Below are positions 26,456-47,873 of a stretch of DNA of 64,000 bases, piece by piece. The notes under the pieces are model-generated. The model worked only from the letters and a program-made list of their open reading frames with translations. It made no database searches and was not told the origin of the DNA. The first letter of the stretch is position 1. Each line of letters starts with the position of its first letter. The stretch covers positions 4,523-68,522 of the forward strand of contig CAYSOG010000001.1 of NCBI GenBank assembly GCA_964432675.1, in the 5' to 3' direction. Position numbers and translations under genes: made by a program. This DNA is from an uncultured Gammaproteobacteria bacterium. GTDB taxonomy: Bacteria > Patescibacteriota > Microgenomatia > CAYSOG01.

Positions 26456-26526
26456 TGCGGGATCGTCTAATGGTAGGACACATGCCTCTGGAGCATGGTA
26501 TCTAGGTCCGAATCCTAGTCCCGCAG
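26456..26526 (+). tRNA. tRNA-Gln (anticodon CUG), no encoded 3' CCA
   Basis: Manual fold: acceptor TGCGGGA/TCCCGCA with U1-A72 and G73 (typical tRNA-Gln identity). D-arm GTCT/GGAC. Anticodon stem CATGC/GCATG with loop CUCUGGA (CUG at 34-36). T-arm CTAGG-TCCGAAT-CCTAG. 3' end followed by CTCG. Confidence 0.7.
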
Positions 26527-26596
26527 CTCGTGTTCTGCCAGATAGACGATGTGGGAACTTCCCTATCGTAATTTTGTAATCTGATATACTCTATTT

Positions 26597-27064
26597 ATGT
26601 ATAATCACGCTCCAAACGAGTATATGTGCCCGCTTTGTTTACTTGGAAAAGAAGCATATAAGTCACCGCTTGTTGTTGTTCCAGACGACGTTGTTTTACG
26701 GACAGAAAAGATAACGGCATTTATTTCTTCTAAATGGTGGCCAAATAATAAAGGCCATATCATTATTATCCCAAATGCTCATTTTGAGAATGTATATGAT
26801 ATTGAGACAGATTATCTTCATGAAATTGCTGACACCTCAAAGAAAATGGCCATTGCGATAAGGAAAGCATATGGTTGTGATGGAATAACTATTCGGCAAC
26901 ACAATGAGCCAGCAGGAAGTCAAGATGTTTGGCATTACCACATGCATGTTATCCCACGGTATACAAATGACGACTTTTATCGAACTGATGCGATTAAAGG
27001 TTGGATTAATCCGAAAGAAAGAAAAGTTTATGCAGATAAAATTAGAAAAGTATTATCTCGATAA
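26597..27064 (+). CDS. HIT (histidine triad) family hydrolase
   Basis: C-terminal HxHxHxx motif (VWHYHMHVIPR) and the HIT fold core (KGHIIIIPNAHFENVYD). Confidence 0.8.
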   Translation: MYNHAPNEYMCPLCLLGKEAYKSPLVVVPDDVVLRTEKITAFISSKWWPNNKGHIIIIPNAHFENVYDIETDYLHEIADTSKKMAIAIRKAYGCDGITIRQHNEPAGSQDVWHYHMHVIPRYTNDDFYRTDAIKGWINPKERKVYADKIRKVLSR

Positions 27065-27095
27065 AAAGTTCCCACATAGTCAACCAGTGCCAGCT
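27062..27095. repeat. Direct repeat copy A (34 bp, perfect) ataaaaagttcccacatagtcaaccagtgccagct
   Basis: Identical to 27413-27446. Begins within the HIT stop codon. Confidence 0.85.
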
Positions 27096-27137
27096 CAGCT
27101 TGTGCTTAGCGTATGATTTAAGAAATATCCTACTATT

Positions 27138-27398
27138 TTATTTGAACCAGTGGAAAAAGGCAAAGAGGTTACTAATTATAACTAAGGCACCTACTAACAA
27201 CAAGATTACAACTCCAGCAATAATGCTTACTGTTAGCGAGGTCATTTTGGCCTTATAAAATTGGTCGCCAACTTTGGTAAGGGTAGTAACTTTGCCATTT
27301 TGTTGATCGTGTAGTGATTTGAGTGCTATATAACCAATTACAAGAACGAAGATAAAACTCAAGATTACAGAAATAGGTATTTGAGGGTCATTACCCAT
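27138..27398 (-). CDS. Small two-TM membrane protein (86 aa) bracketed by the direct repeats
   Basis: Two hydrophobic helices. This is the only gene between the repeat copies. Confidence 0.45.
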   Translation of the reverse strand: MGNDPQIPISVILSFIFVLVIGYIALKSLHDQQNGKVTTLTKVGDQFYKAKMTSLTVSIIAGVVILLLVGALVIISNLFAFFHWFK

Positions 27399-27412
27399 AC
27401 TTACATGGTAGC

Positions 27413-27446
27413 ATAAAAAGTTCCCACATAGTCAACCAGTGCCAGC
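27413..27446. repeat. Direct repeat copy B (34 bp, perfect)
   Basis: Identical to 27062-27095. Confidence 0.85.
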
Positions 27447-27490
27447 TTTGATCCGCTTGCAATTTTGATAGGAAAGTCGGTCTCCGTTAT

Positions 27491-27874
27491 TTGAGTTTAC
27501 AAGATCATCCAGGTAAGTCGTTAGACGAATTGATAGAAATTATTACTAAAACCGGAACTGATAGGTACAATATTTCACGAAAAATGGCTGTTGCACATGA
27601 TTTTTATTCTGATAAAGGGATTGAAATTTTTGCCGTACCAGCAGAAGTGAACAAAGAACTGGACATATCCGCAGAAGCGATCCAAGATTTTTATGAGGGT
27701 GCATTAAAAGATAGAGGATATTCATTAAAGATTGATCTAGTAGTTATTTATGACCTAGAACAGCTTGAACTTATTCCTATAAAATATGACGACGGTATTG
27801 GCAAAGATGCATATAAATTTCGGTATCCCAGCAGAAAAAGTGATGCGGTGTTAGGATTTATTAAAATTACATAA
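27491..27874 (+). CDS. Hypothetical protein (TTG start)
   Basis: Frame opens at 27452. TTG 27491 lies 12 nt after AGGAAAG. 127 aa, no family recognised. Confidence 0.35.
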   Translation: MSLQDHPGKSLDELIEIITKTGTDRYNISRKMAVAHDFYSDKGIEIFAVPAEVNKELDISAEAIQDFYEGALKDRGYSLKIDLVVIYDLEQLELIPIKYDDGIGKDAYKFRYPSRKSDAVLGFIKIT

Positions 27875-27944
27875 ATAAGGTCTAACTCTGTCAATAAATC
27901 CAGCTGAAAAGACAATAGACAAATGGTGATAAAATAAAGTCATT

Positions 27945-28361
27945 ATGGATAAAAAAGCAATTACTATTGAAGCTTTGATAAATGCGCCGATTGAAAAAGT
28001 ATGGGAATATTGGAATGAGCCTGATCATATTACGAAATGGGCTTTTGCTGCTGATGACTGGGAAGCGACAAAGGCAGAAAATGATTTACGAGTTGGCGGA
28101 AAGTTTAAAACGGAGATGGCGGCAAAAGACAAAAGTGCAGGTTTTGATTTTGCAGGCACATACAGTATTGTGAAGGAACACGAGCTTATCGAATATGACC
28201 TTGATGATGGCCGGCATGTAAAGGAAGAATTTACCAAAGAACCGGATGGTGTAAAGGTAGTTATAATCTTTGAGCCGGAAAATGAAAACTCAGAAGAAAT
28301 GCAAAAAAGTGGTTGGCAGGCAATTCTCAATAACTTCAAGAAATACACCGAAAGTAATTAA
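27945..28361 (+). CDS. SRPBCC superfamily protein (AHSA1/activator-of-Hsp90-ATPase-like domain)
   Basis: ITIEALINAPIEKVWEYWNEPDHITKWAF......GGKFKTEMAAKD...FAGTYSIVKEHELIEY is the AHSA1/SRPBCC pattern. Confidence 0.7.
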   Translation: MDKKAITIEALINAPIEKVWEYWNEPDHITKWAFAADDWEATKAENDLRVGGKFKTEMAAKDKSAGFDFAGTYSIVKEHELIEYDLDDGRHVKEEFTKEPDGVKVVIIFEPENENSEEMQKSGWQAILNNFKKYTESN

Positions 28362-28433
28362 CTGCATACTATCTCCCATTACAAACTAATTTATCTATTG
28401 CATTACTCCTTTTTTCTATGGTACAAATAGCTC

Positions 28434-29780
28434 ATGCATTATCGGACACTAGTAATTGCCGCTGCAATGCCACTTTTGTTAACAGCATGTACGTTACCGT
28501 GGCAAGCAGGCCAAAATGGTAAGGCTACAATTTCAGGCATATTTGATTTGAACGGCACAATTCCGCAGGGTGCGACAATTGCTATTGGTTCGCGGGCGGC
28601 AGGCGCAACAGGTAACTTTACGACCGTTGTTTCTGGCCTGCCGACACAAGATAATGGCGCTTGGTCAATTAACGCAGTTAGTGGTAAATCATACGAACTC
28701 CAAGCAACAATGACTCAAAATGGCCAGTCGGTTGCAACTTCCGATCCAATCGACGTGACCGCACCGGCGACGAATGAAGTATTACGTCTTAATATTACAA
28801 ACGGCACACAAACCGCTAATGCGACTATTTCAGGGAAAGTCGTTGTTAATGGTTATATCCCAAGCGGCGCGACACTAACAATAGAAGGTAAAAAGACGGG
28901 AAGTGTTGATTATGCAGTAGTTTCTTCAAACCTCCCGGCCCAAAAGAGTACTACCTTAAGCTATACTACTGCAACTGCTGGACAAGAATACGATGTCCGT
29001 GCAACCTTATATACAAATAGTGGCCAAGCGATTGGAGTCTCGAGCGTACTCATTGTTAGTGCTCCGGCTGCCAACGAAATGCTGACGGTAAATTCAACAG
29101 CCGTACCACCGACGCCTTCACCGACAACTGCACCAGCTTCTGCGAAACCAACCCCCACGCCGTCATCTGCAATTTCCGGCAACATCCAATTCAATGGTGC
29201 TGCACCTGGCAATAGCTCGGTTGTTGTCCTTGCCAGAGTGAATGGGTCAGGTAATACTTACCAATCTGTGGCAAGCGGTATCAATCCGGTGAATGGGTCA
29301 ACCTGGAACTGGCCAAATGCGACAACCGGAACGCTATATGATATGGTAGCAGTGCTTAAACAAAAAAATCAGAATAATACCTATTCTGACGTTGCTTCTT
29401 CGCAGACCCTTACGGTTGCGGCACCAGCATCGAATATTAGTTTTGTTATCAATTCTGGTTACTCGCTTTCAGCGCCTACGGGCAGCATCAATATAAGTTG
29501 TTCAAACCATGACAATAATGCTAATACCTGGAATGCAAATGTAACATTCGGTTCAGTCCAGACCGCGCAATCATACTGGTTCCAACTTGGTACAACCAAC
29601 GGCGGTACTGATACCTATAATAATATGCAAAATGGACAAAATAATATGACACAATCCATTTCACTCACGATTAAAGATAGTGTTATCTACTATGCCCGTT
29701 ACGCGTATGCCAATACCCAAACCAATAACTGGGCAGCCTATTCCCCGTTCTCTTCTGTAACCCAAGTAAAATGTCCTTAA
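28434..29780 (+). CDS. Lipoprotein with three tandem roughly 95-aa beta-sandwich-like repeats and Thr/Asn-rich C-terminal domain
   Basis: Lipobox LLLTAC. Three repeats each start ISG(I/K/N)..NG.IP.GAT and end AP(A/T).NE.L. Pro/Thr linker PPTPSPTTAPASAKPTPTPS. Confidence 0.55.
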   Translation: MHYRTLVIAAAMPLLLTACTLPWQAGQNGKATISGIFDLNGTIPQGATIAIGSRAAGATGNFTTVVSGLPTQDNGAWSINAVSGKSYELQATMTQNGQSVATSDPIDVTAPATNEVLRLNITNGTQTANATISGKVVVNGYIPSGATLTIEGKKTGSVDYAVVSSNLPAQKSTTLSYTTATAGQEYDVRATLYTNSGQAIGVSSVLIVSAPAANEMLTVNSTAVPPTPSPTTAPASAKPTPTPSSAISGNIQFNGAAPGNSSVVVLARVNGSGNTYQSVASGINPVNGSTWNWPNATTGTLYDMVAVLKQKNQNNTYSDVASSQTLTVAAPASNISFVINSGYSLSAPTGSINISCSNHDNNANTWNANVTFGSVQTAQSYWFQLGTTNGGTDTYNNMQNGQNNMTQSISLTIKDSVIYYARYAYANTQTNNWAAYSPFSSVTQVKCP

Positions 29781-29790
29781 ATCGCTAAGA

Positions 29791-30213
29791 TTGTCTGTTA
29801 TAATTTTATTGATGGCTGAAGAACAAACTCCTTCCTTTTTTGGCGATGAAACTGGGCTGGAAATCGAAAAAAGTTTGGCTAAAGTTGCGGCAGAACTTGG
29901 ATTTATACAAACAGATAGTCTTAAATTATTAGAAAAGAGATTGTCAGACAATAAAGTAGATGATGAATTGTCAGATTTAATTTCTGCTTGGCAGCTTGAG
30001 GCCCGGAAGATTGTTACAGAACAAACTAATCCGACAGATCCAAAACCTCAAGTAGGTTTATTGGTTGCCTCGATACAAGTTTTTCTTCGCTGTGGCCGTT
30101 TAGATGACGCTCGGTTTGAGTTAGATGATGCTATAACGTATGCAAACGGCATAGGTGATATTGCTACTGTGAACCAATTAGCAGAGATACTTATGCAACT
30201 AGATAAGAGATAG
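29791..30213 (+). CDS. Hypothetical protein
   Basis: 140-aa ORF, probable start MAEEQ at 29812. Acidic, helical. Confidence 0.4.
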   Translation: MSVIILLMAEEQTPSFFGDETGLEIEKSLAKVAAELGFIQTDSLKLLEKRLSDNKVDDELSDLISAWQLEARKIVTEQTNPTDPKPQVGLLVASIQVFLRCGRLDDARFELDDAITYANGIGDIATVNQLAEILMQLDKR

Positions 30214-30270
30214 CTTTATAAGGTCTTGTACTTACGAATATATTAACAATCCGTTTGGTAAACTCTGGCT

Positions 30271-30534
30271 ATGGCTAAAACATGCACACATCTTGACCAA
30301 ATAAAAGACGTTAAACCAAAAACGCCGGAAGGCTGTGAGGAATGTTTGCAGATGGGCGATGAATGGTTTCACTTACGGCTTTGTTTAACATGCGGTCATG
30401 TCGGTTGCTGTGACCAATCTAAAAATAAGCACGCAACGAAGCATTTTCATAAAACAAAACACCCGATTATTCAGTCATTCCAGCCTGACGAGGATTGGCG
30501 ATATTGCTATATTGATGATTTGACATGGGAATAA
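30271..30534 (+). CDS. UBP-type zinc finger (Znf-UBP) domain protein
   Basis: CTHL..x..C.EC......WFHLRLCLTCGHVGCCDQSKNKHATKHFHKTKHP is the bacterial UBP-type zinc finger pattern with its Cys/His ligands. Confidence 0.65.
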   Translation: MAKTCTHLDQIKDVKPKTPEGCEECLQMGDEWFHLRLCLTCGHVGCCDQSKNKHATKHFHKTKHPIIQSFQPDEDWRYCYIDDLTWE

Positions 30535-30571
30535 TGGAAGCTTATGGTCTGTTGATAGTCTTTGCTAAGGA

Positions 30572-30601
30572 ATAAAAAAAGCCCCAACGATATCGTTGGG
30601 G
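30572..30601 (-). terminator. Intrinsic terminator for the CE4 deacetylase gene (GCCCCAACGAT/ATCGTTGGGGC + T7 on minus strand)
   Basis: Perfect 11-bp palindrome preceded on the plus strand by AAAAAAA. Confidence 0.7.
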
Positions 30602-30619
30602 CGTAATGTTGATCACGAT

Positions 30620-31246
30620 TTAGCCAAGGACGCCGAAGGTATAGCCTTGGGCAAGCAAACCTGGGACGACAGATTCTAAAGCTGCGACCGTATTTGGTCC
30701 TTGCGTATGCATTGTTACAACACCAGGTCGAATGCGGGCTGCAATGTAGGCGGCAGAAGAGCCAGCCCAGTCGTTGGTATCCCAGTTCGTTTGAATAGAA
30801 GTAAAGCCGACTTGGCCTGCTGCGGCACGCACCGTTGCATTATCAGCAAAAAATGGCGCATGTAGTAATGGGGCAGTGCTGACGCCGATTTTTCGAAGAG
30901 CAACTTTTTCACATTGCACGATTTCATCCTGAATGCCGTCGTATGAAAGTGTTCGCAAGTTCTTATGATCCCAGGTATGATTTGCCAAACGGTGGCCTGA
31001 ATTGACAGCGAACTGCACTTCATTGGTATGCCAATCAATCATTTGTCCGGTTATAAAAAATGTTCCCAATACGCCTAAAGCATTTAGGGCCATAGCTTTT
31101 GCTTGCGTACCAACGGCACCATCGTCGAATGTCAGGTAGATAACACTGTCTGCCGCATTGGCTTCTTTGCGGACTTGTGGCATTAATAAAGTAATGCCAA
31201 GTGCTCCTAATCCGGAAATAAATCCGCGTCGTCCGACTTTAAGCAA
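30620..31246 (-). CDS. Polysaccharide deacetylase (CE4, NodB homology domain) with twin-arginine (Tat) signal peptide
   Basis: Tat motif GRRGFISGLGALG. NodB motifs TFDDG and HTWDH. Confidence 0.8.
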   Translation of the reverse strand: MLKVGRRGFISGLGALGITLLMPQVRKEANAADSVIYLTFDDGAVGTQAKAMALNALGVLGTFFITGQMIDWHTNEVQFAVNSGHRLANHTWDHKNLRTLSYDGIQDEIVQCEKVALRKIGVSTAPLLHAPFFADNATVRAAAGQVGFTSIQTNWDTNDWAGSSAAYIAARIRPGVVTMHTQGPNTVAALESVVPGLLAQGYTFGVLG

Positions 31247-31440
31247 TTCCCTTGCATGTCCTTTCCAAGGTGTTAATGTGCAACATAGGTTGCCTCGATT
31301 GCGTAATTATAGCTTAAATAAAGCATAAATCATATCTTTTCCGGTTAACAGGCCAAGAAAAAAGGCGCCGCAGGTTTCCCCTTGGCGCCGAACTTACATT
31401 GCGTTCGGAAGTGATACATAAGAACATATCCTTCCGAAGT

Positions 31441-32904
31441 TTATCCTTCAGTGGGTATCGAATACACACTTCCCAACAGCTTATGCGCTGCCATACCTTC
31501 AGCCTCGGAAAGCTTATGAGAAGTTTTATCCCAATAATAGGGGTCGCCCCATAATATTTCCCGTGCCGCCTTAACACTTGCCCGAAAGCCAACTGTCCAT
31601 AGGTGGAACGGGTAAGTAAATGACCACAGAAAAAGCGAATATTGCTGCGTCCGTCGAATACCATACCAGGTATGATATATATTAAGCAGGTTGCTGATCA
31701 TTGCCAACATGCCCATGTATTCGATCGGCTGCGGAATAATCTGCTGGATAAGACCCAGCCTCGTGCAAACCCAAATACAGGTCAAAGACCAGTAAAATGG
31801 TGCAAAGATGCTAAAGGGCAATGCACCGCCGACAACCGCCGCAAGTGCAATACTGCCAAGCGGGCCGACTTCGCGCAAGAGACGAAACGGGTTTCGGGTA
31901 TGGACGATAAACGTCATCGCGAAGCCTTTTCGCCACCTAGATGTTTGGTTGACTTGCGATTTAAACGTTGACGTCGCCTGCTCTAATGTCGTTGAGTCGA
32001 CCATAACGGTTTTGTAGCCCAAACGGGCAATCCGTATGCCTAAATCGGCGTCTTCGGTAACGTTAAACTGGTCCCAACCACCCGCTTCTGTGAGTGCATC
32101 CATCCGAAGATAGTTAGTTGTACCACCAAGCGGAACGGGCAATTTAGCTCCGGCTAAACCACGGAGGCGCACGGTAAATGCCGTGGCGTAGTGGATCGCG
32201 AACATCCGGGTAAACCAATTGAGCTTGCTATTATATTGGGCCAGTGTTCCTTGAAAACAGCCGGTAGTGGCATACTTCGGGTCTTGCCACAATGTTGCGA
32301 CCGCCCGCAGGCCTTGTGGATCAGGGATGCCCTCTGCATCGAAGATGACAAGCATCTGGCAATGTGCCAAAAGTGCCTGCCGATGCTCACGCATAAACTC
32401 CAATGCCCGCGGTTTTCCCTTCGGCCCATATGCATGAGAGGGAACAGTAATTACCTCAAACCCTTGCGGCAGCTCTTGCTGCCCAAGTGCTTGCTGTGTT
32501 ACGTCATCTCCCTCATCAATAACCAGCAGTACATGCCGTTTGTCTTTTGGATAATCGATCCGATCAAGCCCCTTTAATAGGGGAACAATAACATCACTGC
32601 CTTCCTTATGCAGTGCCGAAACGATTGCCGCATGTGGGCAATTTTCATCGGAAAGTAATACCGCGGGTTTTTGAGCCATCGCTTCTTCCCGAAAACTCAT
32701 AACCCAGAGGTACGAATTAAATAGCTCTGCCAAAAACGACAAAGCAATTGGCGTACTGACAATAACGGTAATGGTAAACAGGAGATTAACCTTGGCACAA
32801 CCAATAATCAGTGCAATCAAGACAACGGGCACGATTTTTTGCCAAGTCGCTGCCCCTTGCTCAGCACTGATTTGCTGAATACTTTCCGGGCTTGCACGCG
32901 TCAC
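31441..32904 (-). CDS. Processive family-2 glycosyltransferase (cellulose/chitin-synthase-like, membrane-embedded)
   Basis: N-terminal TMs. DxD-type region (VIFDAEG), TED motif (NVTEDADLG) and QxxRW motif (QTSRWRKGF), followed by C-terminal TM helices. Confidence 0.8.
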   Translation of the reverse strand: MTRASPESIQQISAEQGAATWQKIVPVVLIALIIGCAKVNLLFTITVIVSTPIALSFLAELFNSYLWVMSFREEAMAQKPAVLLSDENCPHAAIVSALHKEGSDVIVPLLKGLDRIDYPKDKRHVLLVIDEGDDVTQQALGQQELPQGFEVITVPSHAYGPKGKPRALEFMREHRQALLAHCQMLVIFDAEGIPDPQGLRAVATLWQDPKYATTGCFQGTLAQYNSKLNWFTRMFAIHYATAFTVRLRGLAGAKLPVPLGGTTNYLRMDALTEAGGWDQFNVTEDADLGIRIARLGYKTVMVDSTTLEQATSTFKSQVNQTSRWRKGFAMTFIVHTRNPFRLLREVGPLGSIALAAVVGGALPFSIFAPFYWSLTCIWVCTRLGLIQQIIPQPIEYMGMLAMISNLLNIYHTWYGIRRTQQYSLFLWSFTYPFHLWTVGFRASVKAAREILWGDPYYWDKTSHKLSEAEGMAAHKLLGSVYSIPTEG

Positions 32905-34846
32905 TTTTCACCTCTTGCTTAGGTACTTTATCAACCACCTCATAGATACGGCCGAATTTATTCTCAAAAACAATTGTAAAATTCGTATACCGCTCGGGAT
33001 GGTTTTGCATTTCCAAAGCGATATTGTCGTTTTGATGCGTCAGAATCCACTCAACATACGTATCAGGACTATTGAGCACTTTTCCAACCCAGGGCAAAAG
33101 CTCTGAGCGATATTGCCCAAGTGGAATTTGGGCAGCATACTGAACACCCTTAGTGGTACCGAAGGCTTCAAGCAAGATTGCGCCGCCGTCGTAGTGGTCA
33201 TGTAGCCAACTCGCGATTTCTGTACTGCCGGGATCTTCTTGAGCTGATGCATCCATAAGAACCGCGGTGTTGTGGTAAAGATCGCGCCAATCCTTGGCTT
33301 GTAGACTAACAGCTCCAACCATAATCACTAGGCCGACAAGCGTACCTAGCGCTTGCAAACGTATGCGACTTGCATAATGGATGAGTAAGCCTATGCCAAT
33401 GGCCACAAGCGGCAATGCAATAGTGCCATACCGAATATTGACTGATAAAAGCGTTCCCCGCACGATCTTGATTGCGTTGTTGCCCGTATAAAGTGAAACG
33501 ATGAAGTATACGGGAATAAGCATAAGGTACACGGGTGCCAAGTAACGTACTTTGCCTATAACAAGTAGAAGGCAGTATATCGCAAGTCCGGCAATGGCGA
33601 ATGCCAAAAGCGGATCTTGAAAATTCCACCGCACTGCAGCAACGTAATTAGTGATCGTAAAGTGGAGATTATGCACAGCGTCTTGATGGGTTACTTGAAC
33701 TGCGCTTCGGCCAATGACATCAATTGCCCTGGCAGAATAAGGTCCAGTTGCAAAAAACAATGCCGAACCAATAATAACTTGCTCCCAAACGAACCAACCG
33801 CCAATGGCTGAGAACGGAAAGAACGCTAGTATAGCGATATCAGTCAACCACTGTCCACGCAGCCAATCTCTGACAATGCCAGATGTGTTGCGGAAGACTA
33901 AAGGGTTATTGATGCGGTGGATACGACAACTTTTGACAAAGTTAGTAATCACTGCTCGAACAACGAAGATGCCGAAAAATCCAACGAACAAAAACCACGT
34001 TTCATAACGCATAACACAGGCAAGCGCCAGTGCTATTGAGGCCTTGGCCATATTCCCTTCTGTGGGATGCTTTTCGTAGATGATGATGCACAAGCAAGCC
34101 AGCGCTATTGAGCCGATAATACACGACTCCGTCATGGCAGAAACTGAGAAGTACCCCATATTGGGGTTTAGGAACAGCAGTGCAGCACTGCCAAAACTGG
34201 CTATCCTGTTACCGGTTAATTCTTCAACGATGCGGTATGTTGACCGCACGGCAATGATATAGAACAATGCCGACCAAAAGATTGCCGACCAACCCGAGGT
34301 ATAGAGTGGCGTTATCCAGACGGTCAATGCCGTTAAAAACGTATGACCTGGCAGCCACACCGAACCCCAGTCGGCAAGGTTAAATTTGCCTTCAGGATTG
34401 TCCCACATCGAACGTGCATTAATGATCTTTGCGATGGCATCGCCGTATATAGGTGCATTATGGTGCACAACGTGGAAGATAATGTACGACACGACCATAA
34501 ACGCAAAGGCTGCGATAGTGACCGTGTGGCAAGAGAATGTTACCCGGCCGAGGAATTTTATTCCACTAACAGCTGCAGTAATAGACTGTTGCAACCACTT
34601 TGTCAGCGAGCCAATAATAGTCTTGCCATCAGAAGAGATTGTGTTTGTTGCGTAACCGTATTGCGCGTTTGCGCCTTGTTGTCTTATCACGAGCTCCTGT
34701 ACCTTGTTATCATTTCCAGGCTGTGGCGCCACCGTTATTGGCCCAGATAGGGCATAGGTTGGTGGGACAGACCTTGAAAATATCAATTTGATATATTCCA
34801 CCAAGGCGTATGTTAAAACGGCCCACACAAGGGTGCGTCTCATCAC
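32861..34846 (-). CDS. Large polytopic membrane protein, putative GT-C-fold glycosyltransferase/polymerase with C-terminal extracytoplasmic domain
   Basis: 661 aa with more than 12 predicted TM helices, then a roughly 150-aa soluble C-terminal domain. Overlaps (translational coupling) with the GT2 gene. Confidence 0.45.
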   Translation of the reverse strand: MMRRTLVWAVLTYALVEYIKLIFSRSVPPTYALSGPITVAPQPGNDNKVQELVIRQQGANAQYGYATNTISSDGKTIIGSLTKWLQQSITAAVSGIKFLGRVTFSCHTVTIAAFAFMVVSYIIFHVVHHNAPIYGDAIAKIINARSMWDNPEGKFNLADWGSVWLPGHTFLTALTVWITPLYTSGWSAIFWSALFYIIAVRSTYRIVEELTGNRIASFGSAALLFLNPNMGYFSVSAMTESCIIGSIALACLCIIIYEKHPTEGNMAKASIALALACVMRYETWFLFVGFFGIFVVRAVITNFVKSCRIHRINNPLVFRNTSGIVRDWLRGQWLTDIAILAFFPFSAIGGWFVWEQVIIGSALFFATGPYSARAIDVIGRSAVQVTHQDAVHNLHFTITNYVAAVRWNFQDPLLAFAIAGLAIYCLLLVIGKVRYLAPVYLMLIPVYFIVSLYTGNNAIKIVRGTLLSVNIRYGTIALPLVAIGIGLLIHYASRIRLQALGTLVGLVIMVGAVSLQAKDWRDLYHNTAVLMDASAQEDPGSTEIASWLHDHYDGGAILLEAFGTTKGVQYAAQIPLGQYRSELLPWVGKVLNSPDTYVEWILTHQNDNIALEMQNHPERYTNFTIVFENKFGRIYEVVDKVPKQEVKSDACKPGKYSANQC

Positions 34847-34853
34847 TTTCCCT

Positions 34854-35708
34854 TCATGCGAATTTCAAAAGCACGGTAGTTGATACAACGAAGCATAAGA
34901 CAAGAATGCCTTGTATCGGGTCGGTTAGGATGTGTATACCAGGATGGATATCCTCAACAGCGGCGGCCATTTTTGCGCGCAACCGCTTAATAGCAACAAA
35001 GCTTAGGACCAAAAGAATAAGGTAAAGCGGTGACAAGTAAATTGCCGTTGCAATATAGACGACGCAAATACCTGCAACAACTGCATCAGTCAAAAGACGG
35101 GTAGTCTTTGGTGTGTAGAACGCCATTGTTTTTCGGGTATTGATTGATCCACCGTGCCGTTGTTCGGCTCGGCGCTTTTCAAGCTCAATGCCTGTACAAA
35201 GCAAGAAAGCCAGAGCGGTCCAACTCCACCAAACGGCAGGGTGAACCTGGGCTGCGGTAAAACTAGCCAAAACGCGAATGCCAAACATTGCACCAACGAT
35301 AACGACGTCACCAATCGGCACATGCTTAACATACAATGTATAGGTAATGTTTGCGCCAAGATAGACCAGAAGCCATCCTAGCGTTGGTAATCCTAACCTG
35401 CTTGCTAGGGCAAGACTGCCACTAACAAGCAACACACTTGCTGCAACAGCAAGCTGGATTGGGATTTTACCCGAAGCAATGGGCCGAAATTGTTTTGTCG
35501 GATGTTGTCGGTCGCGATCGCGGTCAAGAATGTCGTTAAAAACATAAACCGCGCTTGCAGCGAGGCAGTAGGCCAAAAAAAGAGTGATCAGTTTTGGACC
35601 TTTTTCTGCGATGCCGCCTTGTGTCACGAGAAATGGGAGTGCGGTAAGGCAAAAGACGTTTTTTGTCCACTGCCACACGCGAAGTTGCTTAATCCATACA
35701 CGAACCAT
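34854..35708 (-). CDS. UbiA-family prenyltransferase, decaprenyl-phosphate phosphoribosyltransferase (DPPR synthase)-like
   Basis: NDILDRDRDRQHPTK matches the NDxxDxxxDxxHPxK signature of DPPR-synthase-type UbiA enzymes. Eight or nine TM helices. Confidence 0.7.
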   Translation of the reverse strand: MVRVWIKQLRVWQWTKNVFCLTALPFLVTQGGIAEKGPKLITLFLAYCLAASAVYVFNDILDRDRDRQHPTKQFRPIASGKIPIQLAVAASVLLVSGSLALASRLGLPTLGWLLVYLGANITYTLYVKHVPIGDVVIVGAMFGIRVLASFTAAQVHPAVWWSWTALAFLLCTGIELEKRRAEQRHGGSINTRKTMAFYTPKTTRLLTDAVVAGICVVYIATAIYLSPLYLILLVLSFVAIKRLRAKMAAAVEDIHPGIHILTDPIQGILVLCFVVSTTVLLKFA

Positions 35709-35783
35709 TTTCAGCAGCTTCTTCCTTTTGGGATATCTTGTGTTGTACTTTTTAGGCCTTAGGAACTACGAACTACTGCGTTT

Positions 35784-36353
35784 TTAAAGAGATGGTTGTT
35801 CCATTATGAGTTTAGGATGGGACAATATTTTGGCCGTAAAACCAAAGGACAGTTTGTCTGCGCCAATGTAATTGAGAACAGTACAAATAGCTTCCATTAA
35901 AAACCATGCCAACAGAATTGGCATATGTAGTGCATGTTCCAGTCCACCAACACCCATAATCTTAAGTGGCACCGATGGTGTCGTCAGATTAAAGGCGATG
36001 AATAATGGCAGAAATGCCATAAGCTTTTGCCGGCTGGTATGGTGGGCAAACCTATCTTGCCAAGTAAAGCGCCAATTAAGGCAAAAATTACATAGCAGTG
36101 ATAGTTCAACCGCAATAGCAATTGCGGTAAACGTTTCAACCCCCCGACTTTTCAAGAATGTAAGTAGGGTAAACTGAATAACCGTACTGGCACCACCGAT
36201 AGGTAAAAAACTTGATAGACGCAAAACAAGCCCAGGCTTTTTTTGATAAAGCCAGTATTGGCCTGCAAGGACGGCTGATGCAAGGAACGCTAAGGGGGTA
36301 TTAGTCAGCGGTAAAATTATTCTTGTCGTGAGATTGGATGGGATGTTGTACAC
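35784..36353 (-). CDS. GtrA family membrane protein
   Basis: GtrA-like four-TM pattern with LLCNFCLNWRFTWQDR (NFxxNRxWTF-like). Confidence 0.6.
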   Translation of the reverse strand: MYNIPSNLTTRIILPLTNTPLAFLASAVLAGQYWLYQKKPGLVLRLSSFLPIGGASTVIQFTLLTFLKSRGVETFTAIAIAVELSLLCNFCLNWRFTWQDRFAHHTSRQKLMAFLPLFIAFNLTTPSVPLKIMGVGGLEHALHMPILLAWFLMEAICTVLNYIGADKLSFGFTAKILSHPKLIMEQPSL

Positions 36354-36753
36354 TTTTTTCTCCTGTAGTTTTCAATTGTGTATTCGATTGTTAAGGTACT
36401 GTTTCCCACTAGAAACTGCTCTATGCCGTATTTATGCTTCTTACGTCCAGAATTTGGACTATAGGGGCAAGTTCAGGCAATAGAGCAGCCAATAGTAATT
36501 GGACGGAACAAAAATGCTTTCGTCCGATATCAATAGGATACTATGAGATTATATCAATGGGGTGGTAATATTTCAACCTTTTTAATTTTTTTGCTTGATA
36601 TAGTTATAAAAAATATGACTATTATGGTGACCGATATGAAGCGTAGAATATTACTATATCACAATATATCATAATATAACTATTAACACACGAAGGCCGG
36701 TTATGGCATCTATATCTACCTGTAAAACCGTGAAGCTTATATCAAAGTAAGTA

Positions 36754-36784
36754 ATAAAAAAGGGACTACTTGTTAAGTAGTCCC
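36754..36784 (-). terminator. Intrinsic terminator for putative glycosidase gene (GGGACTACTT/AAGTAGTCCC + T6 on minus strand)
   Basis: 10-bp perfect stem with a 3-nt loop, flanked by AAAAAA on the plus strand. Confidence 0.7.
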
Positions 36785-36913
36785 TAAGAATTGCTAGAAT
36801 TGGGATAGTCTAGCATGAGTATGCTATAGCGTCAGTTACCTTGCGAGTGCCTGTTGATTTTGGATAAATTCCAGTATATTAAGGTACCTCACCTATTACG
36901 ATCAAGGTTAACA

Positions 36914-38236
36914 TCATCCGGTAGCAGGAACGCATGCTGCGAGCATTGCTTCACCAGGTTTGCCCATCACGTCAAAACTGCCGTCGGAAATTGGGTTGTA
37001 TGACCTGTCATGGTAGTTAAAAATCCAGTAGAATTCTCCATTAGGGGTTACATTTTGCCTGACGACCACATTGCACATGGCTTCGATGTAATTTGCCTGA
37101 TCGTTAAGGTTAATACCGGTACCTGGATTCCACTCCCATGGAACAAGATAGGCATGGTTCTGAGAGCCAATACCCCATTCTTGCAATACAAAGTAAACAC
37201 CACGGTCGGTAACGTTCATAGCCTTGACTTTTTCAGCTATCTTTGCAAGACCGAATTCTAGTTGCTGTTCCGTAGCATTTGATGGCACGAGATTTTTGAG
37301 CTCGAAGTACCAGTCAATACCGATAAGTTGGACGTACGGTTGCTGCATATAATCTTTGAGGGTGTCGTCCCAGTTGATTGAGAGAGCAGTAAGGCCTTTA
37401 AACCCGTTTGCCCTCATTTGGTTGATAATCCCTATCCATTGGTCTCCGAAGTATTCAAGATAGGCGTTTTCTGAGCTAATGGAAACTGATTCGGCACCAT
37501 TTTGGACTGCCAGCATTGTGATGGGTCTCATAACGTTTAGCCAGTAATTCGCAAACCACCTTTGAATATTTGCAGGAGGTTCGTCCATCATGGCGTTACC
37601 CTTCCAGTGTTTACTGGCATTAGGCCCATAATACTGGATTGTGCCATTTGGTGCAGTAATCTGCCACTCTTCAGCCATTAGCGGTCGCAGCATGACCGTA
37701 AGCCTTCTTTCGTGAGCCATGCTGATGAATTGAGCTATGTGCTGTGGTGACAATCCCCGGTCTTTGAACGACATGCTTCCAGTTTCGTAGTAGGGAAACT
37801 GCGGGTTTACGTCGTTGTAATCAAGCGTGTAGTACGCCAAGTTTAAGGCAACAGCGTTGGCATGGACTGCAGTGGCGCGATCCAGAATTTGGGTTGCTTG
37901 CGCTGTAAAGTCTTGGTCGGACGGATTAGAATACCAGGCGGTATTAATGCCGACAAAGCGGTAGGGTGCACGTGGTGCTTGATCTACGGGTTGTGCTGGT
38001 GTCTGATCGGTACTCGCTATAGTGTTAATGTGCGATTGGTTGCCAATGGCAAGATCTGGTATATCGCGGCTGGCTGCGGCTTTCGCAGGGCTGCTCATAT
38101 TTGGATCATCGTATCCTACTGCCTTGTTAACCTTAAAGAGTGAACTTATGAATGAACTACTAACTAGAATGACGATAGTAATAAGTTCTTTCTTTCTCAT
38201 AATAGGAATTATACAATATCGGCGGTTATTATTCAA
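36914..38236 (-). CDS. Putative secreted TIM-barrel glycoside hydrolase (GH5/GH26/GH113-like), membrane-anchored
   Basis: N-terminal TM. Glycosidase-like motifs (NAVALNLAYY; WIFNYHDR; VLQEWGIG with a candidate nucleophile Glu). Family assignment is tentative. Confidence 0.4.
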   Translation of the reverse strand: MNNNRRYCIIPIMRKKELITIVILVSSSFISSLFKVNKAVGYDDPNMSSPAKAAASRDIPDLAIGNQSHINTIASTDQTPAQPVDQAPRAPYRFVGINTAWYSNPSDQDFTAQATQILDRATAVHANAVALNLAYYTLDYNDVNPQFPYYETGSMSFKDRGLSPQHIAQFISMAHERRLTVMLRPLMAEEWQITAPNGTIQYYGPNASKHWKGNAMMDEPPANIQRWFANYWLNVMRPITMLAVQNGAESVSISSENAYLEYFGDQWIGIINQMRANGFKGLTALSINWDDTLKDYMQQPYVQLIGIDWYFELKNLVPSNATEQQLEFGLAKIAEKVKAMNVTDRGVYFVLQEWGIGSQNHAYLVPWEWNPGTGINLNDQANYIEAMCNVVVRQNVTPNGEFYWIFNYHDRSYNPISDGSFDVMGKPGEAMLAACVPATG

Positions 38237-38316
38237 GCCTATAGAAATACTAATATCTTTGAGGAACTGTTATCCTTACGAGAATTCCCAAGTGGTGTAA
38301 TTGAAGATATAGAAAG

Positions 38317-38817
38317 TTATAATTTGCGGTTGTCGCCTAGTTCTAGAAGGTAATCATTAATGCCGCCGTCGTCTTTCATTTCGCGCAAGGCGCTGCCTTC
38401 ACGGTCTAATTCCAATGCAGCTTCTATTTTGTAAGTCTTGCCGTCTGCGGATGTTTTAAATATATAGCACTGTTTTGGTGCAAGTGGATCTTGGGGCAAC
38501 CTGGGAAAATATTTTTGAATGTTGAGATAGTGGGGGTCGAACTTAAGCCAGCCAGTGCCGTCAACAGCTTGCGATTGGTCACATGAACTGCTAGAAACTG
38601 ATTTTGGAAACAGTGCGACATCGGTTGGCAACGATTTTAACTCTAAATTGATCATATAATCTAAGGAGTACAATTGTGCAAGGCGCTGGTTATTGTGCCT
38701 GATTATTGCTTCATTGGTTGGCATTAAGGCGTAAAAGACTATCGCGCCAAGTACGATAAGAATGATACATGCGATGAGGTAATCGATTTTCCGGCCGTAT
38801 TTTGTGAAGGACTGCAT
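38317..38817 (-). CDS. Hypothetical membrane-anchored protein
   Basis: 166 aa with an N-terminal TM (YLIACIILIVLGAIVFYAL). No family recognised. Confidence 0.4.
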   Translation of the reverse strand: MQSFTKYGRKIDYLIACIILIVLGAIVFYALMPTNEAIIRHNNQRLAQLYSLDYMINLELKSLPTDVALFPKSVSSSSCDQSQAVDGTGWLKFDPHYLNIQKYFPRLPQDPLAPKQCYIFKTSADGKTYKIEAALELDREGSALREMKDDGGINDYLLELGDNRKL

Positions 38818-38948
38818 CCTACATATATTATATAGTGTTATGGCAGAATATGCAGTTTATACTCTCTCTTTTCAGATTAACCTCAGGTAGTACTTGTGTT
38901 TGTAGGGTATACTAAGACACAGCATTCTACGAAAGGTGGTGAACATTT

Positions 38949-39434
38949 TTGCCGAGAAAAACGCTTTTAAGTGCAATTATTTTAATCATATTAGTGGTCG
39001 GTGCAGTGCTTGTAGCAAAAACTGTTTTGAAACCAAACCAGGCTGGCGAAAATAATACAACAGCCATGGGACAAGCAACAGAAAGTGCAATGGCTACGCC
39101 ACAGGAAATGGCAAGTACTTCTGCCATCAGTCCACAACCAACAACAGCTAGTACATCAAACATTAAGTCATTCACCGTAACCGGAAGCAATTTTGCGTTT
39201 AGTCCAAGCACACTGACTGTTTCCAAAGGTGATACGGTGAAAATAACATTTGTCAATTCTGGTGGCATCCATGATTTTGTGATTGACGAATTTAATGCCA
39301 AGACCTCTAAGATACAATCAGGCCAAAGCGAAACTATCCAATTTGTGGCCGATAAGGCTGGGAAATTTAGCTATTACTGCTCTGTTGCTAACCACCGTGC
39401 TATGGGGATGGAAGGGACACTCACCGTACAATAG
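38949..39434 (+). CDS. Cupredoxin (type-1 blue copper) domain protein, membrane-anchored
   Basis: TTG start 8 nt after RBS AAAGGTGGTGA. N-terminal TM. C-terminal cupredoxin with ligand pattern H (GGIHDF)...C-x4-H-x2-M (YYCSVANHRAMGM). Confidence 0.7.
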   Translation: MPRKTLLSAIILIILVVGAVLVAKTVLKPNQAGENNTTAMGQATESAMATPQEMASTSAISPQPTTASTSNIKSFTVTGSNFAFSPSTLTVSKGDTVKITFVNSGGIHDFVIDEFNAKTSKIQSGQSETIQFVADKAGKFSYYCSVANHRAMGMEGTLTVQ

Positions 39435-39516
39435 TGCGTTATAGCTTGTCACTAGAAATTAGCAAAGTCTTCAAAGTAGGCGGAATGGGAAAGGGTTTGT
39501 ATAGGGCGTATTAAAT

Positions 39517-40317
39517 TTAGCTTAGTAAGACGCCGCCATCGACGACGATTTGTGCGCCAGTCATGTACGATGACATATCAGAAGCTAAAAAGAGTGCAAC
39601 TTTGCCGATATCATCTGGTTCACCCATACGGTGCATTGGAATTTTTGCTAAAAACGCTTCAATAAACTTTGCCATGTCAATTGTTGATGCTGATTGGTCC
39701 TTTGGATGAGTTCCAGGTGTATCAATACCGCCTGGGGCAATAGCGTTCACCCAGATTTTATGGGGCGCCAATTCCAGTGCACTATTTTTCGTAAATCCCC
39801 ACATACCATGCTTTGATGAGTCATAGTGGGCTAGTCCGACCATAGAAGGATGTAACGCATCTATTGAGGTAATATTAATGATTTTGCCACCCTTGCCTTG
39901 TTTTATCATTTGGGCTGCGGCATATTTAGTGCAAAGAAAAGTTCCTTCTAAGTTTACCTTGATAACCCTTTCAAAATCGGAAGCTTGCATATTCATGACC
40001 GGTATGTTTGGGTAAATGCCAGCGTTGTTAACCAGAATATCAAGTGAACCAAAAGTTTTGACCGTTTCCTCAACCATGCCTTGGATGTCTAACTCGCGCC
40101 CAATATCAACACTTACGGCATGAGCAGTAAAGCCCTTGTCAGACAGCTGTTTTTGTGCCTCCTTGGCCTTATCTTCCTGCATGTCGGCAATGACAACCTT
40201 GGCTCCAGCTTCGGCTAACCGATAGGCAATACCAAATCCAATACCAAGGGCTCCACCAGTAACAACTGCAGTTTTTCCAGAGAGACTAAGTAGATGTGCA
40301 TTCGGTACCATATCCAT
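39517..40317 (-). CDS. SDR family NAD(P)-dependent oxidoreductase
   Basis: TGGALGIG Rossmann motif, NNAG, and the catalytic YxxxK region (HYDSSKHG). Confidence 0.85.
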   Translation of the reverse strand: MDMVPNAHLLSLSGKTAVVTGGALGIGFGIAYRLAEAGAKVVIADMQEDKAKEAQKQLSDKGFTAHAVSVDIGRELDIQGMVEETVKTFGSLDILVNNAGIYPNIPVMNMQASDFERVIKVNLEGTFLCTKYAAAQMIKQGKGGKIINITSIDALHPSMVGLAHYDSSKHGMWGFTKNSALELAPHKIWVNAIAPGGIDTPGTHPKDQSASTIDMAKFIEAFLAKIPMHRMGEPDDIGKVALFLASDMSSYMTGAQIVVDGGVLLS

Positions 40318-43335: not shown

Positions 43336-43395
43336 TTATAGTATAGTGTTCATCCCCATTTAAGCCGGTGTGAGAGCAAAAAAGGCATTATACTG

Positions 43396-44226
43396 TTGAA
43401 CAACAGTAAAAAAGCAGTCGGCCGAGAATTGCAAAAATATCATTGTGATCATACAATACAATCACTTATGAAATCACATAGCACCAAAATGATTAATGAT
43501 ACGCCGGTTGAAATCGAAACGTTTGACCCAAAAGGCAAGCGTATTTTAATGATAAGCGCCCATCCTGACGATGCCGATTTCGGCGCCAGCGGCACGCTTG
43601 TAAAATGGCTGAAAGAAGGGGCAAAGGCCGCTATTGTCATTTGTACGAACGGTGATAAAGGGTCGAGTGATCCAAAACTGACAAGCAAAGAGTTAGCAAA
43701 AGTCAGGCACGACGAGCAACTTGCAGCCAGTAAGTTTTTAGGGTTAGACAATACGTGGTTTTTAGATTATCCCGATGCCCATTTGGAAGTAACCCAAGAG
43801 TTAAAAGAAAAACTAGTCCGTATTATTCGTGAGTATAAACCCGATGCTATTATGACTTTTGATCCAACAATGGTGTATTCTGTTGTCCGCGGCACGATCA
43901 ACCATCCCGACCACCGGGCCGTTGGACAAGCGGCGCTTGATGCCATTTTTCCTATGGCACGTGACTTTTTAACATTTCCAGGTCATGGAAAAGAAGGCTT
44001 ACAACCGCATAAAGTAATCGACATTTTTCTTTACAACTTTGATAAAGCCAATTTCTTCGTTGATATTAGCCAAACAATTGACACAAAACTAGCCGTATTA
44101 GCCACCCACAAAAGCCAAGTCAATTTTCCTGATACCGAAACATGGTTACGTGAATGGAATCACAGAAACGGCAAAAAAATCGGTGTTGAATACGCTGAAG
44201 GCTTTGTTCATATCCACCTACACTAA
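43396..44226 (+). CDS. PIG-L/LmbE family N-acetylglucosaminyl deacetylase
   Basis: ILMISAHPDDADFGASGTL (HPDD motif) and HPDH. Confidence 0.8.
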   Translation: MNNSKKAVGRELQKYHCDHTIQSLMKSHSTKMINDTPVEIETFDPKGKRILMISAHPDDADFGASGTLVKWLKEGAKAAIVICTNGDKGSSDPKLTSKELAKVRHDEQLAASKFLGLDNTWFLDYPDAHLEVTQELKEKLVRIIREYKPDAIMTFDPTMVYSVVRGTINHPDHRAVGQAALDAIFPMARDFLTFPGHGKEGLQPHKVIDIFLYNFDKANFFVDISQTIDTKLAVLATHKSQVNFPDTETWLREWNHRNGKKIGVEYAEGFVHIHLH

Positions 44227-44243
44227 ATTGGTAGAGAGGCATG

Positions 44244-44271
44244 AAAAAAGCCCCGGCTTATGAGCCGGGGC
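44244..44271 (-). terminator. Intrinsic terminator (GCCCCGGCT-tatg-AGCCGGGGC; T-run on minus strand)
   Basis: 9-bp GC stem. AAAAAA on the plus strand precedes it, so it points at the minus-strand genes 44296-44927. It may also act weakly for the plus-strand PIG-L gene. Confidence 0.6.
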
Positions 44272-44295
44272 TTGCTATATAGCAAATTAGACTGG

Positions 44296-44478
44296 TCACA
44301 GAACCGGGTCGCGTTTATCGTGTTCGTCCCGGTCAATTGCTTCTTGGCTTTTCCACACTAAAGCAAAAAAATTGTATCTAACACTGAATCCTTTTACTTC
44401 CCAACCGTCCAATTCTAATTCATTAAGTCTGCGCGATAACTTAAATTCATCTGAATTTGATACCACCATAAACGGCAT
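44296..44478 (-). CDS. Small DUF4177-like protein (60 aa)
   Basis: LNELELDGWEV...FALVWK resembles the DUF4177 pattern (LNELGEEGWEL). Confidence 0.4.
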   Translation of the reverse strand: MPFMVVSNSDEFKLSRRLNELELDGWEVKGFSVRYNFFALVWKSQEAIDRDEHDKRDPVL

Positions 44479-44516
44479 AGTTTAACCACTCCTTAATGTG
44501 CAGGGCTTGAGGCAGA

Positions 44517-44927: not shown

Positions 44928-45121
44928 CAGACTTGTCCTTCATGGACAATTACCTACCCTCCTAATCTATCAACATGATGCTGAAGGTATGTGGGATACT
45001 CGATGTTAACGTACCAATTGCAAGCGCAATTGAATAGGCAAATTATAGAAGTACTAGCCGTAATTAGCAACGATGTTTTCAAGTCAAGTTCCTTCGATAT
45101 GATATATTAGAATAACGAACA

Positions 45122-46339: not shown

Positions 46340-46417
46340 AAAAATCTTACTGTGTATGTTACTATTCATCGCGCAACCTTAAAATCTAGCCTTAAATTGC
46401 TTATGGAGGATAGGTAG

Positions 46418-46621: not shown

Positions 46622-46628
46622 TTGCTAG

Positions 46629-46657: not shown

Positions 46658-46687
46658 TAAGCAAAACCTCTTACTCGCAGTAAGCCA

Positions 46688-47863: not shown

Positions 47864-47873
47864 GGAAATTGCT

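Follow-up and report, generated by a model that had tools for sequence, protein, structure and literature searches.

A candidate extracytoplasmic pentofuranose side-chain system joined to a synthase-type exopolysaccharide operon in an uncultured bacterium

A 64,000-nt stretch of contig CAYSOG010000001.1 (assembly GCA_964432675.1, positions 4,523 to 68,522), from an uncultured bacterium and referred to below as the window, carries on its minus strand five consecutive genes for a GtrA-family membrane protein, a UbiA-superfamily protein, a membrane glycosyltransferase of the GT-C fold, a membrane glycosyltransferase of family 2 (GT2) and a secreted polysaccharide deacetylase of carbohydrate esterase family 4 (CE4). 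On balance, these genes probably encode a three-component system for pentofuranose (probably ribofuranose) side chains that are added outside the cytoplasm, joined to a pathway for a synthase-made, deacetylated exopolysaccharide. The original prediction, made from the DNA letters, had described a polyprenyl-phosphoribose/arabinan-type pathway; the polyprenyl-phosphoribose chemistry appears to be right, whereas the arabinan appears to be wrong or at least unsupported. Systems of this kind are already known; this one would differ from them in its predicted flippase of the GtrA type, the lack of a phosphatase, a GT-C of what is probably another family and the coupling to GT2, CE4 and a hydrolase resembling glycoside hydrolase family 113 (GH113).

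All five open reading frames (ORFs) of the predicted cluster are present on the minus strand and matched the domains claimed for them. In the order of transcription (from 36353 to 30620), they encode the GtrA-family small membrane protein (35784-36353, 189 amino acids (aa); PF04138, 47.7 bits, residues 49-170), the UbiA-superfamily protein, which resembles polyprenyl-phosphate 5-phosphoribosyltransferase (PPPRS) and its decaprenyl-phosphate counterpart (DPPRS) (34854-35708, 284 aa; PF01040, 102.4 bits at a cut-off of 34.2), the GT-C protein (32861-34846, 661 aa, or 660 aa in the NCBI call; a weak PMT_2 match of 28.9 bits), a GT2 resembling the cellulose synthase BcsA (31441-32904, 487 aa; PF13641/PF13632, 72-73 bits) and the CE4 of NodB type (30620-31246, 208 aa; PF01522, 84 bits). 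GtrA opens the operon, and GT2 and CE4 are located downstream and not, as had been stated, upstream in transcription. The gaps between the genes are 75 nt (GtrA-UbiA), 7 nt (UbiA-GT-C), -44 nt (an overlap of GT-C and GT2) and 194 nt (GT2-CE4), and a Shine-Dalgarno-like sequence precedes each of the five starts. A promoter-like site on the same strand (36576-36548; TTGAAA, 17 nt, TG-TATAAT) lies ∼200 nt 5' of the GtrA start. It is the top-scoring sigma-70-like match in the region 30000-39500, agreeing with the consensus at 11 of 12 positions and having an extended -10 element; it is a consensus match only, and as a class such sites were not enriched over shuffled sequences. At the other end, an intrinsic-terminator-like hairpin of 9 bp (7 of them GC) followed by a T-run is located on the same strand at 30581-30602, 18 nt past the CE4 stop. 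Because the promoter-like site and the hairpin bracket exactly these five tightly packed genes, they look like one transcription unit, and the placing of GT2 and CE4 with the UbiA block is upheld by the packing and by these boundaries. Just upstream, on the same strand, lies the gene for a GH113-like glycoside hydrolase with an N-terminal membrane anchor (36914-38236, 440 aa; PF22612, 46.8 bits). It is closed by a terminator-like hairpin of its own (36785-36761), which separates it from the operon, and its product probably serves this glycan system as an accessory hydrolase.

The UbiA protein contains the motif N58-D59-x2-D62-x3-D66-x2-H69-P70-x-K72 (NDxxDxxxDxxHPxK), from which a DPPRS-type enzyme had been predicted. 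This assignment was borne out. The best PDB match is Rv3806c of Mycobacterium tuberculosis (8j8j, E 3.7e-24), the next UbiA-type match being chlorophyll synthase at E 2.7e-3. NCBIfam models of the DPPRS type scored 104-147 bits, compared with at most 39 bits for heme-O synthase, 4-hydroxybenzoate prenyltransferase, chlorophyll synthase and other classes, so that by model and PDB scores the protein groups with DPPRS enzymes in the proposed comparison with menaquinone and heme-O prenyltransferases. In the structure of Rv3806c, phosphoribosyl pyrophosphate (PRPP) and Mg are bound by R22, K28, Y70, N73, D77, K87, R90, Q135, Y138, K143 and Y157, and the phosphoribose-binding residues are stated not to be conserved among other UbiA enzymes (PMC10994848). 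In a HMMER alignment, residues R10, K16, Y55, N58, D62, K72, R75, Y123 and K128 of the window protein are identical to this site, as are the further Asp-motif residues D59 and D66. Thus, 11 of the 13 PRPP/Mg-site and Asp-motif residues are identical and two show conservative changes, Q135 to N120 and Y157 to F142; some mycobacteria likewise have a Phe at the position of Y157. This pattern does not vary across 123 UbiA homologues, including two from the related modules L001 and L020 described below. Judged from these comparisons, the window protein is a member of the PPPRS/DPPRS clade (Rv3806c type) and not of the MenA, UbiA or heme-O groups.

For the 661-aa protein, an AlphaFold2 (AF2) model built on 17 homologues reached a pLDDT of 75.7 and a pTM of 0.76. 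When this model was compared with the PDB using Foldseek, the best 34 matches were all GT-C enzymes (STT3/OST, ALG12, DPY19, ArnT, ALG9, PglB and Pmt4), with E values of ∼1e-5 for STT3, ALG12 and ArnT and TM-scores of 0.59 for ALG12 and 0.55 for ArnT, which confirms the GT-C-like fold that had been proposed. A comparison with the EmbC and AftA families, also proposed, gave no likeness. EmbA, EmbB and EmbC were found at E 0.07-0.25 and TM-scores of 0.2-0.35 and ranked under STT3, ALG12, ArnT, DPY19, PglB and Pmt; AftA and AftD were absent among the 50 Foldseek matches listed, and in a PDB search neither the sequence nor the family profile matched a solved GT-C. According to the model, the protein has a GT-C fold that is not Emb/Aft-like. 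Invariant in its family are G135-D136 in the first loop, R145, D149, E240, R280-Y281 and R472-Y473. A word-indexed search returned 17 family matches, and an exhaustive search returned 754 representatives at E ≤ 1e-3, 21 of them at E ≤ 1e-30.

Domain scans of 17 long multi-domain relatives of the GT-C protein showed a fused GT2 domain in 16 of them. Eight combine GtrA, a PF00535-type GT2 and GT-C in one chain of 930-1125 aa (P0284, P0289, P0296, P0299, P0310, P0314, P0319 and P0345), and such chains would amount to a complete three-component system of the Gtr type in a single polypeptide. Because family members are fused to GtrA and to a GtrB-type GT2, the family is expected to use lipid-phosphate sugar donors, on Rosetta-stone evidence that is strong but indirect. 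Another five are fusions of a BcsA-like GT2 with GT-C (P0371, P0399, P0392, P0388 and P0328), and single cases are GT2 + GT-C + GH113 (P0327), GT2 + GT2 + GT-C (P0301) and GT2 + GT-C + GH5 (P0382). In the literature searched, no description of GT2/GT-C fusion proteins or of a GT2/GT-C/GH113 system was found.

The gene neighbourhoods of the GT-C family give a similar picture. The closest relative (P0122, 36-39% identity) is encoded on a 4.1 kb contig (L001, GC content 0.66) with a UbiA homologue (34%), GT-C and GT2 (35%) in the order of the window, and on L020 (GC 0.67) a GT-C with 30% identity is directly followed by a UbiA homologue, in the opposite order, with a CE4 gene 3 kb upstream. The adjacency of UbiA to GtrA and GT-C in the window, as predicted, was confirmed, and that of UbiA and GT-C recurs in these two further deeply diverged lineages. 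Since the modules of the three lineages encode proteins that are only 30-37% identical and occur in two gene orders, the adjacency appears to be old and selected. A profile scan of the GTDB genomes with the GT-C alignment returned only relatives with 23-26% identity, in Propionibacteriales. At these five loci, a weakly BcsB-like gene and GT-C are found, together with a 32%-identical GT2 in four of the five, the fifth contig ending just past GT-C, and no UbiA gene lies within 10 kb of GT-C. On L021-L026 (GT-C 25% identity), a GH113 gene precedes a gene for a single 1159-aa fusion of GT2 and GT-C (L021:8093-11572). Overall, there are at least four further lineages in which a GT2 homologue adjoins this GT-C family or is fused to it. 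From these neighbourhoods, two linkages appear to recur independently, one of GT-C with PPPRS-like UbiA and one of GT-C with BcsA-like GT2, often with GH113, and the window has both. On the acidobacteria-like contigs L002-L007 (GT-C 23-25% identity), the GT-C gene is found directly after a PfkB-family sugar kinase gene, mostly with PNP_UDP_1 upstream and a diaminopimelate epimerase downstream; these members may be linked to the salvage of pentoses or nucleosides.

The profile of the GT2 family, made from five homologues, matched the cellulose synthase BcsA best (E ∼1e-19 over ∼330 residues) across both the glycosyltransferase and the membrane regions. Its motifs D133, D189-A-E191, T283-E-D285 and Q320-x-x-R323-W324 are invariant in the five homologues, and hydrophobic segments at the N-terminus and C-terminally of QxxRW flank the catalytic domain. 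Thus, the QxxRW motif of the original prediction is present (as QTSRW), together with DAE and TED, and processivity itself is only predicted. A single-sequence AF2 model of GT2 had a pLDDT of 40.5, which is too low for use. The Nocardioides homologue on L011 has an N-terminal MshEN domain and a weakly BcsB-like neighbour. By its profile, GT2 is a candidate processive synthase for the acceptor glycan. The CE4 protein starts with G-R6-R7-G-F-I-S followed by a hydrophobic stretch and A-N-A, which resembles a signal peptide of the twin-arginine translocation (Tat) pathway, and because of this signal peptide it is expected to act outside the cell. Its translation contains the metal and catalytic motifs TFD41D42G, H90-T-W-D-H94, D-T-N-D-W and M-H-T. 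Its best PDB relatives are chitin/xylan and peptidoglycan N-acetylglucosamine deacetylases (E 1e-19 to 1e-14). The prediction of a Tat-exported, metal-dependent CE4 therefore agrees with the twin-arginine-type signal and the Asp/His/His motifs, its activity being predicted. The Arg of motif 3 (RxPY/F) is apparently replaced by His (L-H-A-P-F-F), with no change in the remaining metal and catalytic motifs. Taken together, GT2 and CE4 would fit a synthase-dependent, partly deacetylated exopolysaccharide.

Based on these features a pathway can be proposed, in which the flippase role of GtrA, the sugar, the acceptor and all enzyme activities are predictions from sequence. UbiA would transfer ribose-5-phosphate from PRPP onto polyprenyl phosphate at the cytoplasmic face, and a phosphatase encoded outside the operon would then take off the 5-phosphate. 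GtrA would flip the resulting polyprenyl-phosphate-ribofuranose across the membrane, and GT-C, relying on Asp136, which is invariant and lies in the first external loop, would pass the pentofuranose to an acceptor outside the membrane. Because the GT-C family recurs beside, or fused with, BcsA-like GT2 and GH113-like hydrolases, this acceptor is likely a synthase-made polymer, most likely the one made and exported by the co-transcribed BcsA-like GT2. The secreted CE4 would partly deacetylate the polymer and the neighbouring GH113-like hydrolase would trim it.

The sugar is determined in known systems by the epimerases present. Pfam and NCBIfam scans covered ∼40 of the 67 ORFs of the window, including all those of suitable size, and the remainder were judged from their translations. 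In this way, no DprE1-like FAD oxidase, DprE2-like reductase or other epimerase was found in the 64 kb, which are the part of the genome seen; a search for DprE1 and DprE2 had been suggested in the original prediction. A protein of the short-chain dehydrogenase/reductase (SDR) family encoded at 39517-40317, the sole SDR in the window, was considered as DprE2 and rejected, as it is of the generic FabG/glucose-1-dehydrogenase type and belongs to a different transcription unit. Because of this lack of a DprE1/DprE2-like epimerase, ribofuranose is likelier than arabinofuranose. The arabinan-type reading would need a true polyprenyl-phosphate-arabinofuranose (DPA) pathway as in Corynebacteriales, with the DprE1/DprE2-type epimerases encoded elsewhere in the genome and GT-C adding arabinofuranose. 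The homology of UbiA to Rv3806c is in line with such a pathway, GtrA is the family of Rv3789 from the mycobacterial DPA locus, and with 64 kb of the genome seen, distant epimerase genes are possible. However, besides the missing FAD-binding DprE1-like and DprE2-like proteins and the generic SDR, the lack of Emb/Aft likeness of GT-C speaks against it. The modules on L001 and L020 also have no epimerase gene, though these contigs are short, and in known systems the epimerase genes lie inside the cluster (PMC11127046). The DPA pathway is therefore considered distinctly unlikely here.

Several observations weigh against the proposed ribofuranose system. By the ORF scans and translations described above, neither a HAD (PRP) nor a PAP2 phosphatase for the 5-phosphate is encoded in the operon or elsewhere in the window, unlike in the characterised systems. 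The UbiA protein stays below the NCBIfam equivalog cut-offs for decaprenyl-phosphate phosphoribosyltransferase (132.4 vs 207, 126.3 vs 234 and 103.7 vs 474 bits), so that by the NCBI criterion it would be a divergent member of the clade and not an equivalog. The window GT-C has an N-terminal extension of ∼95 aa (codons 34562-34846), which is poorly modelled, contains one hydrophobic segment (residues 5-23) and is lacking in most relatives. With one more crossing of the membrane, the catalytic loop would come to face the side opposite to that expected, so there is doubt about either the start site or the topology. On L016, L017 and L018, the UbiA homologues nearest to the window protein (39% identity), with an intact PRPP site, have exosortase EpsH/EpsI genes on one side and a block of DUF362, 4Fe-4S protein and DUF6599 genes on the other, with neither a GT-C nor an epimerase gene close by, and other close homologues are found beside TRAP transporters. 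DprE1/E2 or GT-C neighbours had been expected for these homologues, and these contexts were found instead. Because they are unrelated, membership of the clade alone does not fix the pathway. Likewise, more distant GT-C relatives have GT2 as a partner and lack a UbiA gene within 10 kb, so the window GT-C may use another donor. Both points would suit a view in which the five genes are mere neighbours, the UbiA product feeding an unrelated lipid or cofactor process and GT-C using a hexose donor made elsewhere, as most GT-C family members have no UbiA nearby. Such a chance arrangement is highly improbable given the gap of 7 nt between UbiA and GT-C within one promoter-to-terminator unit, the retention of their adjacency in three lineages at 30-37% identity and in two gene orders, the intact PRPP site and the atypical GC content shared by four of the genes, which suggests joint acquisition.

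The role of GT2 can also be read differently. It might be a non-processive, lipid-directed glycosyltransferase that makes a second lipid-linked donor, such as an N-acetylhexosamine (HexNAc), or a glycolipid, with CE4 deacetylating the product as in the ArnC/ArnD/ArnT pathway or the mycobacterial PpgS/Rv3779 galactosamine pathway, and with GT-C transferring one or both sugars to an envelope acceptor. In line with this, GT2 gives a weak match to GT21, the ceramide glucosyltransferases (31 bits), in which QxxRW also occurs, and its GT-A half matches the minimal cellulose-synthase-like archaeal GT2 6yv7 (E 1e-15). Moreover, other GT-C family members are fused to GtrB-type GT2 donor synthases, and GT2-GT-C fusions fit a donor synthase plus transferase as well as a synthase plus decorator. 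Nevertheless, BcsA is the best profile match across the glycosyltransferase and membrane regions, DAE, TED and QxxRW are all invariant, and hydrophobic segments lie on both sides of the catalytic domain as in hyaluronan synthases and PgaC-type synthases. Partners of exopolysaccharide synthases are present as well, with GH113 adjacent or fused, a weakly BcsB-like neighbour and, in Nocardioides, the MshEN domain, which is of a cyclic di-GMP-type. Finally, CE4 is predicted to be exported, whereas ArnD acts on the cytoplasmic face. A lipid-directed GT2 is thus rather unlikely, and a pentofuranose side-chain system acting on a synthase-made polymer is preferred.

In a characterised counterpart of this system, a PPPRS, a flippase and a GT-C add α-ribofuranose side chains to O-antigens outside the cytoplasm, and DprE1/E2 or ORF13-type epimerases switch the sugar to arabinofuranose or xylofuranose (Kelly et al., PNAS 2024, PMC11127046). 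In Citrobacter youngae O1/O2 the components are ORF15 (PPPRS-PRP), the flippase ORF14 and ORF12, a GT-C founding family GT136, and pentofuranose systems are reported to be widespread, also in glycans of unknown structure (PMC11127046). As in C. youngae, the window encodes a UbiA-type enzyme that is predicted to depend on PRPP and shares the catalytic residues of its counterpart, as well as a small candidate flippase and a GT-C expected to act outside, with GtrA, UbiA and GT-C consecutive in one operon, and ribofuranose is the sugar expected when there is no epimerase. In contrast to C. youngae, the predicted flippase belongs to the GtrA family and is not a small ORF14-type transporter, and there is neither a fused HAD phosphatase (PRP) nor a separate one. 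The GT-C probably also belongs to a different and rare sequence family, and its proposed catalytic context differs (G-D136-A-I-A-K vs the reported D31, E34 and Y35 of ORF12). The likely acceptor would be made by a BcsA-like synthase and not by an O-antigen pathway, and the host is an uncultured low-GC bacterium.

Other known systems share parts of this arrangement. With the mycobacterial DPA pathway (Rv3806c, Rv3807c, DprE1/DprE2, Rv3789 and Emb/Aft), the window has in common a UbiA homologous to Rv3806c, a GtrA-family neighbour and a GT-C as the final transferase; it differs in having no DprE1/DprE2 or PAP2 protein, a single operon-encoded GT-C outside the Emb/Aft group instead of a polymerising set, and a non-actinobacterial host. 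The Gtr systems (GtrA/GtrB/GtrV of Shigella and Salmonella; CsbB/GtcA/YfhO of Firmicutes) also combine a GtrA flippase with a GT-C, and distant family members form single GtrA-GtrB-GT-C chains, but their donor synthase is a GtrB-type GT2 using UDP-hexose and not a UbiA-type PRPP enzyme. A membrane GT2 with D, DxD, TED and QxxRW, a secreted CE4 and a glycoside hydrolase are likewise found in PgaC/PgaB, IcaA/IcaB, the Listeria PssC/PssB/PssZ system and BcsA/BcsB/BcsZ (with BcsG modification). In the window, unlike in these systems, a GT-C adjoins the synthase, to which it is fused elsewhere; to our knowledge, synthase systems of the PgaC/IcaA/Pss/Bcs type have neither a pentose donor that is lipid-linked nor a GT-C as partner. 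On the Lactococcus cremoris eps plasmid pF27D, the gene order is a hypothetical membrane protein, DPPRS, a HAD phosphatase (HAD-IB) and GtrA. Like the window, this polysaccharide locus pairs PPPRS with GtrA in a host that is not an actinobacterium, and a gene for a large membrane protein directly precedes them, but the locus is of the Wzx/Wzy type and has its own HAD phosphatase. In hhalign comparisons, the window GT-C family showed no relationship to the membrane proteins encoded beside PPPRS in Lactococcus and Legionella.

The host is not an actinobacterium. The closest relatives of its glutamyl-tRNA synthetase (GluRS) show 59-62% identity, and the named matches (43-47%) come from Bacteroidota, Ignavibacteriae, Ca. 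Beckwithbacteria and Chloroflexi. The original prediction had called the cluster notable if the host were not an actinobacterium. This holds for the host, but such a finding is no longer very notable, as homologues of the window UbiA already labelled by NCBI occur in Anaerolineae, Planctomycetota, Bacteroidia, Lactococcus, Legionella, Rhizobium and haloarchaea. Plasmid-borne homologues are annotated as DPPRS in Lactococcus, Legionella, Rhodococcus and haloarchaea and as a UbiA-family prenyltransferase in Rhizobium. The GC content of the window is 0.42, and among its 67 ORFs the four highest values are those of CE4, GT2, GT-C and UbiA (0.47-0.495 vs 0.416 ± 0.031). The synteny of RecJ, aspartyl-tRNA synthetase, GluRS and malic enzyme is shared with two relatives (L014 and L015) and breaks off directly behind malic enzyme (compared over 26456-30534 of the window). 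At this point the window has a tRNA-Gln, and L015 encodes a type I restriction system and a TIR-domain protein; the site is thus variable and island-prone. An Rfam scan returned tRNA-Gln only, and no tRNA 3'-end repeat marking island borders was found in the window. Because the GC content of the operon is high compared with that of the host, its site is variable and its nearest related modules come from organisms with GC contents of 0.66-0.67, horizontal acquisition is likely.

Further genes of the window may be of interest for its envelope. A second envelope-glycan neighbourhood extends over 41506-50217 and encodes a PMT_2-type GT-C (41506-43335), a PIG-L/BshB-like deacetylase (43396-44226), a phosphodiester glycosidase of the NAGPA family (45122-46339), an Acyl_transf_3 protein (46688-47863), a multi-pass membrane protein of 459 aa that matches no family (47874-49253) and a PgaB/IcaB-like CE4 (49330-50217). 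A NAGPA-family gene is also located 3' of GtrA in the Lactococcus eps cluster (L027). The region 57756-63100 resembles a duplicated fibre secretion module of the TasA/SipW type. In it, two camelysin/TasA-like (Peptidase_M73) proteins (57756-58316 and 61527-62360) are each followed by a SipW-like signal peptidase (58397-58966 and, from translation, 62531-63100), with a Lamin-tail-domain protein (59609-60919) between the two sets. Copper or iron handling may be the task of a set that comprises a secreted cupredoxin (38949-39434) and, further along, a ferric-reductase-like membrane protein (53949-55511), which has a YtkA-like domain and is followed by two small secreted proteins (to 56951). On the opposite strand, directly beside the operon terminator, an 87-aa zf-UBP zinc finger protein is encoded (30271-30534; PF02148, 47 bits), a domain best known from eukaryotic ubiquitin hydrolases.

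The most original lead of this analysis is that a synthase-type GT2 recurs paired or fused with GT-C and a GH113-like hydrolase. As a possible, if doubtful, extension, these three proteins might represent an uncharacterised and widespread class of exopolysaccharide machine, in which GT-C takes a sugar from a lipid phosphate and attaches it to the growing chain at the exit of the synthase, encoded by separate genes or as two- or three-domain fusions. The window would then hold the first version with a pentofuranose donor, for which PPPRS and GtrA were recruited, on a horizontally acquired island of a deep-branching host possibly related to the candidate phyla radiation. The analysis does not amount to a demonstration of actinobacterial-type arabinan outside Actinobacteria. 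If the proposed system is correct, PRPP-derived lipid-linked pentofuranose donors would decorate synthase-made exopolysaccharides in addition to O-antigens, capsules, pilins and mycobacterial arabinan, and such decoration would also occur in poorly known uncultured lineages. With the combination of GT2, GT-C and GH113, branched polymers for secretion would be assembled by a new route, and the compact PPPRS and the new GT-C family would provide parts for glycoengineering.

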